DNA of 64,000 bases. Origin: Tubiluchus corallicola (lineage: Eukaryota > Animalia > Priapulida). The notes under the pieces are model-generated. The model had not been told where the DNA came from, searched no databases, and saw only the letters and a list, made by a program, of their open reading frames with translations. The DNA is taken from the NCBI GenBank assembly GCA_030141605.1, contig JAQGDQ010000040.1, forward strand, positions 682,001 through 746,000. Reading direction: 5' to 3'. Below are positions 35,201-44,200 of this stretch, piece by piece. The translations under genes and the position numbers were made by a program. How positions within the stretch are numbered: position 1 is the first letter of the stretch; each line of letters starts with the position of its first letter.

Positions 35201-38200
35201 ATTAAGAATATTCAGGACGCGTCCCGCATTTTCTTCGCAGTGTAAACGGGGCTTAAAGAAGTTCTCCTGAATGTTAAAAAAACTAGATGTGTTCCTAAGT
35301 TAATTTTTCGGCTAAAGTTTACAGTTTCCCATACTCTAGAAATTAGTTCGCGAAGCGGATTAGGATTAGGATTAGGGTTAGGGTTAAAGTTGGCTTAGGG
35401 TTAAAGTTGGCTTAGAGAAAGGGTTAGGGTTGGGACTAGTGTTAGGGTTGTTGTATTTAAATTGTGTGAGAAACGCCTTCGAATTTTTCAGAAAGCAATA
35501 GGTTAATGTATTTTTTTAGAATCTGCACTTTCAAATTCATCGGCGAAACACATTTGCATCGTATTATTCTGATGAATTAAACTCCGAATGCTTGTCAATA
35601 CAGTACAGTACAGTACAGTACAGTACAGTACAGTACAGTACAGTACAGTACAGTACAGTACGATACGATACGATACGATACGATACGATACGATACGATA
35701 CGATACGATACGATACGATACAATACAATACAATACAATTATGTTAATAACTCACTTTCCCTGATTCATGCCTTTGAAGCCGTCATAGATCAAGTCAAAT
35801 GTTGGTCTGGACTCCGGCATTTCCATCCAACATTGCTTCATGATGTGAATGGCTTCGGGCGGCGCTGACTGTGGCGACACCGAGGGACGTATAAGCGGGG
35901 GTGGTTTCTTTATCTTCCTTATTATTTCTACATAGTTGGTACAGATGAAAAATATTAGTCACAACACCACAACTATTAAAAACGCATCAGTCTGTATTTT
36001 CGTTTTGTTTTTTGGAAATTAACAGGTTCAATGGCCTTTGAAGTAAGTATTCACTGCAGGTAGTCAAGAGAAGCTGTATGGCACGGTTGACTGAACTGTG
36101 CCTGATTAGGCCATTAATCACAGGTAAAAGCTTTTCTAAGTCTTAAGCATAAAAGAGTACTTTGCCGCCTTAATCTTCGCGTTGAACGCAGCGCGAAGGT
36201 TCATAAATTTAACGAATCTGATTGTTTTATTTTATTAAAGACGATTAAATACAAATATATCAACATAGCAATATGCCAGAAAATGTTAATTAAAATTTGC
36301 TAAATATACTGCTGTAACATTAGATAAACGTTCAAGCGAGATTTGAAAATGTTAATCCGAGTTATTTTACAACTGAGTACGTTGAATGCTAAAACGTGGA
36401 AAAATAGAAATATCGACAAAATCAAAATAATATAACATAACATAATAAATCACGCAGTTACTGCTTTGGTAGCCTGTTATTTGAGTTGATTTCTGTATAC
36501 TACTTGTGTATATCTGTAAATGTTGATTACCAGTCGCATAAATTTTATATCCGCCATAGAGGTCACGCTCAAATTCTGTACAACTTGCTTTTTACGTTTT
36601 ACATTTTTTAGCATAATGATTCAGTGAGAAGGTTTTCCTCTTACCAAAATCAATGACGTAGCTGCAGGTTGAATCATCTCTTTAGTCTTTCGCGTTTTCA
36701 GAGAAAATGGGAAAAATTTTATAAAAAATCACGTCGCTACCTACAGAATCTGGGGAAAGCACAAATGCTAACAAATCTAATTGCAAAACTTGTCTTAACG
36801 CGCTCTTTCTATGCATAGGCCTACTCCTCAAAATAATAAGTATATTTCGCGTCAATGGTTGCATGCATCAGTATCACAAATTTCCAGCAGCCGATTAAAA
36901 GTGACACCACTCCAGACACTCTCGACCTGGCGGAAAAAGAAATGCTAGCGCAATTAGAATTACATGAATACTTTTTGTGAATGTACTGGTTTCCTCCTCG
37001 TACTCAGCACACAGCTAATTATGGTTTACAAGACAAGTACTAAATGCTGGATATATGCTTCCATTCATTGCTTAGACTGGATGAAGTAACTGATCGGCTT
37101 ATTGATCAAATTTTTCATCCTATGTTATTTGACACATGCAGTGTGGTGTTTCAGGAGTCAACAGTTCTTTTCTGTTTTTTAAAACTAAAATGTTCGTATG
37201 TTGCCACTTGCAGCTGCTCATAAATGCTAAACTTGGATGGGTCATTTCTGGTAACTTTGTTTCAGGGGAAGGTCAATGCAAAATTTAAAATGGTTTTCTT
37301 TTCAAAGTAGGCCTAGTTATATGAACTTATTTATGAACTGCATTAATTAACTAACAGTTCAGCATAAAAACATGGAATTGAATAAATTTTAAAAATGTAT
37401 AACTGTGTTCACATATAGTTTTTAAAGCAACTTAAGAACAATTCAAGTTTTGAAGTGCAATTCTCATTTACCATGCTGTGCGATAACTACACAAATAACA
37501 TTCATTTGCTACATCTCAAACGTTCGTCTCGGGTATATGACGCTTATTTTGGTAACTTTTGGCTTTAATTACCTTCTGCTGTTAGATTTATGTTGCAAAA
37601 TGGTGGCCGCCTCAGCATAACTTCCTGACAAATAATTGCAAAGGAGTAGACGTCGCCCATTTGGGTTCCTTTCTTCATCACTATAGTGTCCCTGAGTAAT
37701 TCTGGAGCTGTCCACAACAAATCTGAAAAGCAACAAATAATATAGTGACTTTGGATGTACCTTCGATCCCAAAAGCAGGGAAATAGCAAAAAAAAATTTA
37801 AAACCTGTTGCCCGTATTTTGTATTGCCAGTAAGTTTTGGAGTTATCAGGGTCAAGAGTACCTCAAATTTAATATTAAAGGTTATTTAGCCAACATACAA
37901 ACATTCAAACAGATACATATCTGAGCATTTCTTAATTATAGTCACATATACTAAAGCTGTGGGTTAGGGACCCTCGAAATGGCAATACGGCTGCCTAAGT
38001 TAAAGGGCACCTCGAGAAGGAATAGAAAAAGAGAAAGAAAGCGATGGGTGAAAAAGAGAAAAGGGAAGAAAGGCACAGAATACCAGAGAAGTTCAGTGTC
38101 GATGTAAACTTGTGATGTAAACATTGTGACTTAACAAGTCTTGTCAGAAATAGACTGGTTCACTTCCCCTATTTCTGATACCTGCATTATTTGTTGAATA

Positions 38201-41200
38201 TGTCTGACAAACCGAAGAGTATCGATGAGCTGTGTGCATGTGACCGTAAGAAGCTGAAAGCCATTACGAAGGACGATATGATAGAAATCATACTGGCTGC
38301 CCCCCCTTCGGCCGCTTCTGGTGGTGCCGATTCAGCTGTGTTGAAACGCCTGGATGAACTATCTAATAATATTAACACTAAATTTCAAAATCTGGAGGAA
38401 AAATTGTCCCAAAAGATTGAAGACAAACATTCTGAATTAAAGACTGAAGTGAATGTCTTGCGTCAAGTTGTTAAAAATCAACAACGGTTTTTGGAGCAGG
38501 TTGACGGTCGTCTCCGAAACCAGAACTTAATTATGATGGGCTTAAGTGAAAATGAGGATATCGATGGTGCTAATTCCGACGATGATAAGATAAGGAAAAT
38601 TCTTGATGTAGTGGATGTGGAAGCTGCTGTCGTCTCATACAAGAGACTCGGTACAGCTACGAATGGCCGTGATCGTCCTGTGTTGGTCATTGTTGAAAAT
38701 CATGACCAAAGGGACAATGTCGTGAAGAATGCTAATAAGCTTCAATCGTCTGCCAATGCTGCTGTGAAAAAAGTCAGAGTGAAGCGAGACACCCACCCTG
38801 CAGTTCGTGCCGAATGGAAGCGGCTATTTGACGCTGAGAAGTGCGAACGTGACAAACCTGAAAACCGGGGATGCCATATTGAGTTTGACAAGAAAAAGCG
38901 TGAGATCACCCGGGACGGTGTTGTTATTGATAGTTGGCAACCAATGTCTTTTTTGTAAACAATCGAGATAGTTGCACTGAACTCCGTATTACACATTGGA
39001 ACATTAATGCCGTGAAAAATAAACTGGAGATCGACTTTGTTCGCCAAAGTTTATGTAAATCTGATATGATATTCTTAAATGAAATCAAAACTCCGTTGAA
39101 GTTCACAATGCCTGGGTATAAAACTCTCCGAACTAATCAAGCAGCTGGTCACCGTGGTGGTTGTGCTATACTGATTTCAAATGTGCTAGCCTCTTCGATT
39201 CAATCGGTCGAATTTGGTTCCGATGTTATTGTGCTACGCCTCAATAATATACCTGGTATTGTTTTTGTATGTGTTTATCTCACGCCATCTGACTCTCATT
39301 ACCACTCACTTGAATGCTTAGCAAAAATCAACGAAGTTATGATGTCCAACCCTCATGATCAATTTGTGATACTTGGTGATTTGAATGCCCGTTACGGGCC
39401 TGCTATTAACAAATTTTTACGTAATGTTAGTGACAGTGGTGCACGATATCTTGCTTCCGAGGATTCGATTGGATCCCCGAATGAAAATGCCAAAGTTGTT
39501 TATAATTCTTTTAACTCTTTAATCGTTGTAAATAACATTCAGTATAAAGGCAGAACATTTAAAAGTAATCTGACGTATAGAAAACGTGAGAATTGGATTT
39601 CTGAATTAGACTATTGTCTTATTTCTCCTGCACTAATCGATAGTGTTGTCAATTTCACTGTCAATCAAGACTTACGATTACCTTCGAATCATGCCCCTCT
39701 GTCTGTGATTTTTGATATCAACATGTTATCTCGTGGAGCCTTACCTCACAATCTTCTTATCAGATCCGAAGCCTTAGGTGCTCATGCAGCTGAAGTTAAA
39801 ACTCCAAACCGCAAACATTGTAGCCGTCAGATCCGTATTGCTGAAACAGACTGTGTCGAATTTCAGAGAGTGATGTCTTCAGTTGAACCTCCTGATGATG
39901 TGGATGATGTAAATAGTTGTGTTACTGATATTAATAATGTTTTCCGTGATAAACTGATTAGATGTAAAGCTCCGAATCGTCTCATCAATCGTTATCAGCC
40001 GACGGATCGTTGGCGCCGTATGCTCGAGCTCAATGATTCTAAGGAAATATGGAATGCCATAGACTGGAAAGGAAACACGATTGAATCTGAATCCTTTGAA
40101 TCTCCAACTAGCGAAGAATTCAAACGTCATTTCGAGGATCTTCTCAACCCAGATCGTGATGGTCCAGAGGACTTATTATCACTGTGCGATGGTCCAAGTA
40201 TCCCTATCACAGATGATCCGATCGCTTTCGATGAGTTTGTTTCTGCTGCTTCCGAATGTAAATCAAGTAGTAGTGGTGGACCCTCTGGTAGTCCTGGTGC
40301 TGTGTTCAATTTTATCCCAGATAATTGGATTAATTACCTGTGTTTTGTTCTGAATTTCATATTCTTTTCGCGATCTTTCCCGATTCCGTGGTGCTTTAGC
40401 CGCCTTGTTACTATTTTTAAGAGAGGATCTCGTAAGGACTGCGATAATTACCGCGGTTTGTCAATCATGGATTCCCTTGCGAAAATATACGATCGAATTT
40501 TGTGCAAACGTTTAGAGATGTGGTTCAAACCCGATAGGGAGCAGGCTGGCGCCCAAAAGGGTAGATCCTGCATTGAGTGGATTGTGACTCTAAGACTATT
40601 AATGGACTATGCACTGTTTAAAAAGAGGAAATTATATATCGTTTTCGTAGACTTCTCGAAAGCTTACGATAGAGTTCCACGTTCTGGTTTGATTAGGGCC
40701 TTGAGAGCTCTTGGCTGTGGTCTTGCGATGCTTTCTGCTCTTGCTGCCATGTATGTGAATACGCAGCTGGTCCTTGGTGCTGCCGTTATTGGTGTTACAT
40801 TAGGTGTGAAGCAGGGTTCTCCGTCATCCTGTTTCCTCTTCACACTGTATATTAACCCTCTTATTCGTGAATTAAAGTCTAGATGTGGTCTCGATGGTTT
40901 CCTAGGAAATTTACACTGTTTGATGTTGATGGATGATACAATCTTATTGTCAACATCTAGAGAAGGTATTATTCAAAAACTCAGTATCCTTATTGAGTTC
41001 TGTGATCAATCCGGTATGAAGGTGAACTTAAAAAAGACTAAATTTATGGTTATTAATGGCGATGCTGTTGATCGTCTGGACCTCGTAGTGAACCCCCTTA
41101 CTGTTAATCACTGTGACTATAACGTTTACCTCGGTGCTGTCTTTAGCTCAACAGGAAAATTTAAACCCGCTCTGGAAAAACACTGCGAAGACAAATATTG

Positions 41201-44200
41201 TCACGTACTGAAGTTCGTGTCATTTATTTCTAAGAATTCAGCTTATCCTTTTGCAGTTAAGAAGTTGGTTTTAAATGCCGCGCTACTTGCTGCAATTACT
41301 TACGGATGTGAGTCTTGGCTATTCAATGACCTTAATCCTATTCAAGGGATGTATATTAGTGTTATTAAATGTTTACTCGGTGTGCGACGTACAACTGCTA
41401 ATGATTTGTGTCTCATAGAGTTGGGCCTTCCCTCCCTGAATGGTTTTGTGAAGGACACCCAATCTCGCTTTTTCAATAAGATTGTTCGCTCAAGAGTGAA
41501 TATTCCTGATGATCCGTTTATGATTGTTTACAATTTGTGTCGCGAGTCAAACACCCCATGTGCTCGATATTTGCGTAATATAACTGGATACCGTGGTGAT
41601 TTTATCGATGATGACCTGAATAGAATCAAAGATAGGACCCGCGCTTCTGACCGTACGAAATTTGTCACATACTTACAACTAAACCCTGAACTCTCTATCC
41701 ATCGAATTTACTGTGACAATGTTAATGAACTGAAACGGATAAAAACGTCAAGGCTCAGACTTTCCTCACACAACCTTGCCATAGAAACCGGTCGTTGGTC
41801 CCGTATTGAAAGAGAGCGAAGACTCTGTTCATGTGGACAAATCCAAACAGAACTGCACGTAATATGTGAATGCCCTGAAACACGTATCTTAAGAAACAAT
41901 TCCGATTTAATATTTGATGATTTAGTGACTTTTTTCAGCGGAAATCCCGCTGATATTTGTAATTTTGTACACGATGCTCTAGCCATTTTTGGTCTCTAAT
42001 TGTTACTACACCATACATTGAGTGATCTATGGACTATGATCAGCCTAAATTTCTTAAATGTTGCAACTATCTCGAAACGATTCTTATGACTTTTTGTATA
42101 TATCTTTGACCATGGTCAATAAATAAATAATAATAATAAAAACCGATGCTGCGTCAATAACAATGACGACAACAATAATAATAATAATAATAACAGCAAC
42201 GACAACGGCGGCGGCGACGACGACGACGACAACAACAACAACAACAACAATAATAATATCTATTTCTATTTTTATTGTCGTCTTGTCACCATTATCATTA
42301 TACATGTATTGCTAAATAATGATAATTGTAACTATAAGTTGGAGCACAACACTGTTATGATGATAAGAATAAATGAATTAAGAAATGTCCAGTGATAAAA
42401 AATACATTTAAAGACAATAACTTGTTCACATACATACACATTACCTTTAGGTGTTACGGTTTTATGAACTTGTCGACCTTCGTACATCATAGGTAAACCG
42501 TAGTCCGTTATTTTGAGGACCCATCGGCTATCAATCAAACAGTTTTTGGAGGTGAGGTGACCATGCACACGAATTGGACTAGAGTGTAAATATCGCATAC
42601 CCTATTAGAAAAAACCGTAAAATTTATCTACACAGTGGCACATTATAGCTGCAATAACATCAAGCTTAGATATTCTACTTGTTCTATTAACAATTACTCT
42701 TGTTTTATTAACAATTTTATTTATCACAAACTTACTGTTTTTAATTGTTTGATTGCTTCAAAGTCGCATTTTTTCACACGTTCTGCGTGTTGTGCTACAT
42801 ATTCAACTTTTTCATACCCCTATATTCCGCTGGTAGTCTAGTTTTTGAATACGTTTGAGTTTTTTATGCACACGTGCCTGCATGTGGCAGTCTCTAACTA
42901 GACATTTTTCTCTCAGCTCGTTTTTATGATTCTGTGGCAAATATACATCAACAATTGCAATATACATGCTGTCATGATCATCAATTCTCATCTTTTAGAA
43001 ATGTCTTATTTTGTTCTAACAATATAAAATCAGACCCGAAAACTCATTAGTTATCGAAAATGAGTTACCCTTGCGGTTCGTTTGAGAAATTGAGAGACAA
43101 TACAAACGTAACATTTTCTTGAATAATTTGTGTTTTAGATAATTTGCTTCGTTAAAATGCGGAAGAACTCAAACTTGCAATTCCTCAAGGTTCTGAAAAC
43201 ATAATTCTTACATCTTACTTAGTTACATTATTACTCAAATTGTTCTGTATCGTAACTGCTTTTAAATAATCACAGAATCAAGTTTTTATTACTCACCCGT
43301 ACAAGGTCTGTCAAAAACGAGAGCTTGAAGGACCACTCCAGCTTTATGTTTTCGTTTTTGTACAACTCCTTAAAATTAAAATAGCGTTGTTAAAGGACGG
43401 GTTCAGTTAGTTTTCAGTTTTACAAAAGATAAAATAAGAAAATCTGCAAGTATAACTATGTACTCAATACCTAACATAAATGATGAACGAATCCGCGTGC
43501 ACCAGCATGCTTATCACTTGAGTATGCCAGGTCCGCTGCGGTTTAATTATGTGAGACTGACCAATGTGCAACGCGCTCGAGGCAAATTATCTCATGTGTG
43601 ACCGAGCAGTCTGATCTTCGCATCTTAGCCCCTGTCTCGATCCCTTAAACAACCTCAGTTTTTTAACCGGAACATTCTCTGAGCCTTTGTTTTAGGTGTC
43701 TAGCCTGCGTGACTTTACGTACTATAGTTTTCGAGTTATTTTTTTAACTTATTCGATTTTTATTTAGACGTAACTTAGATTTAGTTTGGTTTGCATGGTT
43801 TATTAAACGCAAGGATTTTCCACTCCAGAGATTGATGGTTGGCACAGCACCAGTTTTACTGCAGTGCTTGCCCGGTTTGGAAAATCAACTTGAAGGGAGC
43901 GTGATTGAAATCAGTTACTCACTTATGGTTTTTCAAGCTTATTGGAGGAACCGAGTTACCTCAAGTTAATTTAGTGACTGATTTCCTATAAATTCGTTTC
44001 TGACTTGCTCTGGCATTAAAGGCCATAATCCTGCTACATAGAACCTTAACAAAAAATACTAATCCTTGCTTTACGTTACACACACGCCTGCCATAGGCAC
44101 ATACATTTTTTTATTAAATTAACAAGTTACAAGTAGTGTAATTTTATTTGAAGCAAACAAATTTCCACGATAATAGGGTAGTACGTAGCTAGTGTTAGAG

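Follow-up and report, generated by a model that had tools for sequence, protein, structure and literature searches.

A candidate −1 frameshift site and a possible long-range RNA helix in a LINE of Tubiluchus corallicola

Organization of the LINE

The analyzed DNA is a stretch of 64,000 nt from the priapulid Tubiluchus corallicola (assembly GCA_030141605.1, contig JAQGDQ010000040.1, positions 682,001 to 746,000 of the forward strand), here called the window; positions are counted from its first nucleotide. It contains a full-length long interspersed nuclear element (LINE) of about 4.0 kb at 38109..42139 on the forward strand, a retrotransposon that lacks long terminal repeats (non-LTR) and is of the apurinic/apyrimidinic endonuclease (APE) type, with a pair of open reading frames (ORFs) as well as the Pfam domains RVT_1 and Exo_endo_phos. 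The junction of its two ORFs probably directs a −1 ribosomal frameshift, and a 14-nt segment behind this junction is exactly complementary to the 3′ untranslated region (UTR) of the element.

All parts of the LINE are given for the forward strand. ORF1 (38200..38958) encodes 252 aa ending in WQPMSFL. It has 6232 relatives at E≤0.001, and no Pfam family scored above the cut-off for it. The ORF2 frame (38934..41999), −1 relative to ORF1, comprises 1021 codons from stop to stop and encodes the endonuclease, a reverse transcriptase (RT) with an LMDD motif and a C-terminal Cys/His motif. It is followed by the 3′ UTR (42000..42123) and an (AAT)n tail (42124..42139). Thus, the element shows an ORF1 followed by an ORF2 in which the APE endonuclease precedes the RT, together with a simple-repeat 3′ tail, several copies and 5′ truncations, as in other LINEs.

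The ORF1/ORF2 junction

ORF1 ends as ATG TCT TTT TTG TAA, with the stop TAA at 38956-38958. The ORF2 frame is open from 38934, giving a 25-nt overlap with ORF1. Inside this overlap, a heptamer of the X_XXY_YYZ type, U_UUU_UUG (38949..38955), stands in the ORF1 frame and directly abuts the ORF1 stop. The heptamer is followed by a 7-nt spacer (38956..38962), which starts with the stop itself and reads TAAAC, so that no AUG is present at the stop-start position. Endonuclease motif I (ITHWNI) is encoded at 38988..39005; its counterparts in alignments are the first strand of exonuclease III (5ewt) and, by profile, that of L1 ORF2p. The first AUG of the ORF2 frame is codon 45 (39066..39068), and a start there would remove motif I. 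Because this AUG lies behind the motif, some recoding or odd initiation is required. The junction was unchanged in the contigs of the sequencing runs X1, X2, and X3, which ruled out an assembly error at this place, and no diverged subfamily was seen across the junction when the runs were mapped at 80%. A −1 frameshift on U_UUU_UUG is regarded as probable in this LINE.

Alternatively, ORF2 could be translated separately by termination-reinitiation, from the near-cognate UUG at 38934 or by AUG-independent initiation of the kind proposed for L1; the complementarity described below would then be a chance match or a SART1-like downstream element. Like the window element, SART1 and mammalian L1 place ORF2 at the ORF1 stop and in the −1 frame. 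SART1 uses UAAUG and a downstream RNA structure, and the L1 ORF2 start tolerates any sense codon (PMC3894237, PMC5972666, PMC1965478). Overlaps in the −1 frame with AUGA, UGAUG, or UAAUG were also common among the control LINEs described below. In contrast to SART1 and L1, the window has TAAAC with no AUG and a conserved U-run instead. Neither an AUG at or close to the stop nor an upstream UGGGA motif, as in SART1- or calicivirus-type reinitiation, was found: there is no in-frame AUG until 39066 and no TGGGA in 38860-38958, i.e., in the 100 nt before the stop. Separate translation of ORF2 is considered improbable. Two starts of relatives (P0003 and P0007) that had been read as exact UAAUG were downgraded to suggestive, since linker lengths vary.

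A probable frameshift signature in relatives

DNA of relatives being scarce, the nucleotide constraint was derived from protein ends. In total, 154 ORF1 relatives were examined (6 and 148 more). Phe is the last or second-last residue in 133 of them. The residue preceding this terminal Phe was never Q, K, E, M, or W, which have no pyrimidine-ending codon (0/133 vs. 91/358 in the upstream linker; Fisher p 3e-11 when restricted to the 97 non-Phe cases). Additionally, the ratio of H/N/D to Q/K/E before Phe is 30:0, compared with 33:84 in the upstream linker (p 5e-14). The codon before Phe thus ends in a pyrimidine; from the relatives we infer that ORF1 is under selection to keep a U-run at its end. 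The ending pyrimidine-Phe-stop of 133 ORF1s is not predicted by reinitiation. Of the 154 relatives, 81 are compatible with a U-type heptamer of canonical form at the last or second-last codon; for the others, a single slip at the stop or a +1 slip on UUU_C would be an option. Many of the relatives P0048-P0195 end in F-Q, F-H, or F-R before the stop, which would fit +1 slips on UUU_C (as in UCC_UUU_CGU).

Seven ORF2 relatives have a called N-terminus that extends back across the end of ORF1, and all of them have Phe at the corresponding position (U_UUY); the base at this position is therefore U, if ORF2 is read in the −1 frame. G, P, or F, the residues of homopolymer codons, precede that Phe in 6/7 of these relatives (p about 0.001). 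The ORF2 frame of P0199 (52% identical), the closest relative with an N-terminus, reads FFVDRRDS, i.e., the same heptamer and then a stop. This relative also retains RDS, the codons of the 5′ arm of the helix described below, which gives the helix weak support. Called 'M' starts over the overlap, which could be counted for separate initiation, fall on the conserved Trp codon of ORF1 and may be ATG, GTG, or TTG. Thus, the shift site appears to be conserved in the relatives, the exception being the metagenomic locus L004.

The U-run could also be a polypyrimidine tract, with ORF2 expressed from a spliced RNA. Endings in Phe-TAG and Phe-Gln could read YYYYAG, and an AG is present at 38966-38967. 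However, the stop in the window is TAA, many of the endings (FL, FF, FH, FA) give no AG, and no upstream AUG exon was identified. Splicing is considered highly improbable.

Complementarity between the junction and the 3′ UTR

The spacer is followed by the 5′ arm of a putative 14-bp long-range helix (38963..38976). Its exact reverse complement, the 3′ arm (42062..42075), is located 63 nt past the ORF2 stop, and the distance between the arms is 3085 nt, so that the region 3′ of the shift site is complementary to a site kilobases downstream. The heptamer, the spacer, and both 14-mers had been named in the original prediction and were all read directly from the DNA. No further matches to the 14-mer were found in the window with up to two mismatches allowed. 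The 14-mer is the longest perfect helix of the element, which has one 14-mer, three 12-mers, and four 10-mers. One of the 12-nt complements, to 38953-38964, lies in ORF2 (41522..41533) and is a competing partner, at chance level (at least 12 nt in 420/1000 shuffles).

The energy of the 14-bp duplex was calculated as −21.8 kcal/mol, with opening costs of 4.6-5.3 kcal/mol for the 5′ arm and 2.8 kcal/mol for the 3′ arm. The helix is present in the minimum-energy fold of 38900-42139 (3240 nt). No local hairpin was predicted behind the heptamer by the fold model, which is without pseudoknots (z +0.83), and the 3′ UTR folds no better than its shuffles (z +0.32). Rfam returned nothing relevant. A weak hairpin (42057-42062 / 42076-42082), proposed earlier to display the 3′ arm in its loop, is present in the letters and in no predicted fold. 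The spacer of 7 nt matches the optimum of 7-8 nt described for stem-loops on the U6A heptamer (PMC3458567).

Placement of the arms was compared with chance in several ways. Of 191 windows compared, none paired better with the UTR than the junction. None of 5000 shuffled UTRs reached 13 nt against the 60 nt after the heptamer. The analytic chance, for windows picked post hoc, is 4e-5 (60 x 140 nt) or 2e-6 (a spacer of 5-9 nt against the UTR). In 73 control LINEs (UTR of up to 600 nt, automatic junction calls with a few mis-paired, and none from the clade of the window), the longest perfect helix between junction and UTR was 6-11 nt, and 0/73 reached 12.

Proposed mechanism and points against it

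We propose that ribosomes slip −1 on U_UUU_UUG just before the ORF1 stop, which would yield an ORF1-ORF2 fusion of about 1265 aa carrying the endonuclease and reverse transcriptase. The 14-bp helix with the element's own 3′ UTR, 7 nt past the slip site, may act as the roadblock that triggers the slip; it would form in vivo and raise frameshifting. Translation of ORF2 ends 63 nt ahead of the 3′ arm, and therefore only the ribosomes at the junction would have to unwind the helix. If the helix raises frameshifting, much ORF2 protein would come only from RNAs whose 3′ end is intact. Of the original prediction, the −1 frameshift was indirectly supported by the family-wide protein evidence; the hairpin display and a toggle between translation and reverse transcription were not. 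The role of the helix as a frameshift stimulator is plausible from the spacing, the lack of a local stimulator, the minimum-energy fold, and the contrast with the 73 control LINEs; it is put forward tentatively, at a likelihood somewhat short of even. The same tentative standing is given to the wider reading, in which the LINE gates RT synthesis on an intact 3′ end, the fusion protein is born beside the tail, and recoding where ORF1 ends, through frameshifts on a U-run in two clades and TAG readthrough in a third, is a common and overlooked route to ORF2 in invertebrate LINEs.

Several observations weigh against this proposal. On the side of the frameshift, one contig from run X4, which is rich in indels, shows only five U's at low depth, and its 5′ arm contains an insertion; the deviation is probably an error, because X3, which comes from the same sample, does not have it. 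The called start lies just before motif I in 9/32 ORF2 relatives, which also speaks for separate initiation. At the junction of L004, the sole one of the clade available as DNA besides the window, ORF1 and ORF2 share one frame across TGA-CTA, and an AUG follows 13 codons later (L004:410-470). Since 9/32 relatives start before motif I and L004 combines an in-frame stop with an AUG, the clade appears to be mixed. The L004 stop in TGA-CTA-C is in what we take to be a readthrough-like context.

On the side of the helix, a perfect helix of at least 14 nt was found somewhere in the 4.1-kb element in 40/1000 dinucleotide shuffles (P 0.04). The match had been credited earlier with a probability of 4^-14 per position pair; its exactness holds, and the figure is too low, because these shuffles give a helix of this length in the element. 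Very many elements were read in the scan, which raises the odds of finding such a helix. Pairing beyond the 14 bp is not significant (p about 0.2 on each side), and extended pairing from two-strand folds was rejected for this reason. There is no evidence of covariation, the copies being near-identical and no relative with both the junction and the 3′ end having been found. Annealed oligonucleotides worked best with spacers of 0-3 nt, not 7 (PMC3458567), and the predicted folds of the LINE show no counterpart of the proximal stem-loop or the distal hairpin known from the plant viruses discussed below. In the second LINE family described below, the element's own junction/3′-end pairs are no stronger than swapped pairs (7 elements, p 0.15-0.38).

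A real frameshift could run on the six U's and the adjacent stop alone, the 14-mer being a coincidence. The shuffle frequency, the lack of an extension, the three 12-mers in the same element, and the second U6R family, which has no such helix, are all in line with this. Moreover, little ORF2p is required (PMC3894237), and U6A shifts at a low level with no stimulator (PMC3458567). Against a coincidence stand the positions of both arms at the expected places and the control LINEs, for which the values are given above. A chance origin of the helix is regarded as unlikely, the foremost of the alternatives nevertheless.

The 3′ end of the element

The 3′ UTR ends with a terminal motif (GAC...GTCAATAAA, 42106..42123). 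The sequence GTCAATAAA and a microsatellite tail were found in 4/4 examined 3′ ends of relatives (L001, L006, L085, and L024), and each of these has a GAC upstream of GTCAATAAA with which a terminal stem could be closed. By analogy with stringent LINEs, whose proteins bind the 3′ tail of their own element (PMC4176376), the terminal motif is likely the 3′-end recognition site. The 3′ arm stops 40 nt short of this motif, and therefore the helix need not block reverse transcription. The proposed toggle of the RNA between translation and reverse transcription found no support, as the 3′ arm avoids the conserved terminal motif.

The helix could also be real and serve another role, with frameshifting independent of it: the tail would be folded back beside the ORF1 stop, which would protect the RNA from nonsense-mediated decay in spite of the 3.1 kb that follow the stop, or would bring new ORF2p close to its own 3′ end (cis preference). 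A poly(A) end folded back near a stop suppresses decay. In the window, the ORF1 stop precedes the 5′ arm by 4 nt, and about 50 nt separate the 3′ arm and the tail; the binding of stringent LINE proteins to their tails fits as well. Such a role is compatible with the helix also stimulating a frameshift, but leaves unexplained why the spacing is the frameshift optimum. As a replacement for the stimulator role, it is considered improbable.

Comparison with known systems

In barley yellow dwarf virus, red clover necrotic mosaic virus, and pea enation mosaic virus RNA2, as in the window, the heptamer ends ORF1 and the polymerase is in the −1 frame; a structure starts about 6-7 nt downstream, and pairing over kilobases, in the window a predicted one, involves a site near the 3′ end (PMC5009743). 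In these viruses, a local stem-loop has a bulge that forms a kissing contact with the loop of a distal hairpin, whereas neither structure is predicted in the window, where the long-range helix itself would be the first obstacle. The signal also differs in its host, which is here a retrotransposon of the nucleus that multiplies by target-primed reverse transcription.

Frameshifting in the −1 direction in LINEs is already published. The Dictyostelium elements TRE5-A and TRE3-A, non-LTR retrotransposons of the L1 clade, are stated to need a −1 frameshift for ORF2, as proposed here; they belong to another clade and host than the window element, and the accessible text mentions no long-range stimulator (PMC5911963). 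That a plain duplex 3′ of a six-U heptamer suffices in vitro is known from HIV-1 U6A with an antisense oligonucleotide (PMC3458567). Unlike the window, this system is artificial, acts in trans, works best with spacers of 0-3 nt, and has an A-ending heptamer. The literature searched, which does not cover most subscription journals and Repbase Reports, yielded no description of long-range pairing at the frameshift site of a LINE.

How ORF2 of LINEs is translated is an acknowledged open question (PMC3894237, PMC5009743). If the proposed long-range switch is true, it would explain in concrete, testable terms how a retrotransposon exerts quality control and cis preference, and would carry a strategy of plant viruses over to mobile elements of the nucleus. 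Even with the helix formed by chance, the clade-wide pyrimidine-Phe-stop ending and the two side families described below point to ORF1-ORF2 fusions by recoding, and such fusions would change the annotation and engineering of these elements.

Clade placement and searches for further members

In total, 34 ORF2 relatives of the clade were found, the first 32 being 36-68% identical. In a quick tree without named reference elements, the clade of the window forms a separate long branch of 9-10 rows (support 97-99), and its placement near contigs that we take to be RTE-X-like, a name assigned with no reference sequence, is weak (support 78). The RTE-X-like elements are the top scorers against the ORF2 profile. 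Like the window element, they have an APE-RT ORF2 with RLSSHxLxIExGR, a Cys/His C-terminus, and a microsatellite tail. Unlike them, the clade of the window has LMDD, a short ORF1 of 250 aa, and a −1 U-run junction, where the RTE-X-like elements have an in-frame TAG. The excerpt of PMC11203168 provided no clade diagnostics.

A metagenome scan returned 80 loci, among which the junction of the window clade was found only in L004, which is without its 3′ end. Two viral scans for relatives were empty. A genome scan returned 16 loci, including one 3′ fragment of the clade. The ORF1 profile, run against sets of 4, 201, 30, and 2 genomes, did not bring up any member of the clade; eight weak hits in G185 were rejected as belonging to other LINE groups. 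The bacterial genome bins G185, G002, and G003 contain dozens to more than 100 near-full-length contigs of eukaryotic LINEs, a contamination that is a useful source of junctions.

Recoding candidates in other LINE families

An unrelated second LINE clade, with an ORF2 of 1160-1225 aa, was found in contigs of G185. Its elements have in-frame U_UUU_UUA (17) or U_UUU_UUG (8), and among 37 loci examined, the heptamer opens a −1 overlap in 25 of the 27 elements with an ORF2 start found. These elements are strong independent candidates for −1 frameshifting. In a review, G-ending heptamers are absent from the shiftiest ones; that the second family keeps U_UUU_UUA/UUG in 25/27 argues that the G-ending form is used. 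The longest perfect helix between junction and 3′ end in this family is 7 nt. In its elements (L200, L205, L212, L215, L227-L253), GCCTC is usually found 8-12 nt past the heptamer, and some have local hairpins.

In the RTE-X-like LINEs from contigs of G003 and G185, ORF1 and ORF2 lie in one frame with a single stop between them (L109, L110, L116, L140, L142, L144, L146-L176, and others). In-frame junctions were found in 50/96 cases; 46 of these have TAG, including 36 with TAG-G. The first AUG after these junctions is mostly hundreds of bases further on, and a G-rich motif is often present 6-10 nt past the stop. This clade is a candidate for conserved stop-codon readthrough, on which the literature search showed nothing.

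Copies and genomic setting of the LINE

The LINE family is young and multi-copy, and the copy in the window is inserted antisense within a host intron. In four sequencing runs from two studies, the depth over the LINE is several times that of the flank and climbs towards the 3′ end; this depth does not equal copy number, and the runs may include the window's own source. The copies are mostly more than 99% alike, and neither helix arm has a listed variant in the four runs. No second copy was found in the 64,000-nt window. The 5′ end of the LINE is approximate (38109-38146): contigs branch after 38108, and in contigs of the sequencing runs other copies begin at 38146, 38686, 40509, and 41072. 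The 5′ leader (38107..38195, forward strand) is predicted to form a stable hairpin (38100-38200, fold z −3.35, with 0/200 shuffles as stable). Positions 38110-38129 partly repeat the flank letters immediately upstream. Any target-site duplication is at most a few A's, and the loose ends possibly come from paralogous flank repeats.

The LINE is inserted in an A-run of a flank element that is itself repeated and carries a purine tract as well as an AAC/AAT microsatellite (38060-38108, 42140-42260). Other copies of this flank element, seen as loose ends, continue uninterrupted across the insertion site, which possibly reflects a target preference or an empty allele. The intron is bounded by two host exons on the reverse strand, both with AG/GT ends. 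The upstream exon (42445..42601) encodes part of a kinase-like domain (Pfam PK_Tyr_Ser-Thr, E 2e-7), which continues in the next exon (37573..37722; Pkinase, E 4e-4, below the cut-off). Pfam returned only kinase families for these exons; we take them to resemble the kinase-homology domain of a receptor guanylyl cyclase.

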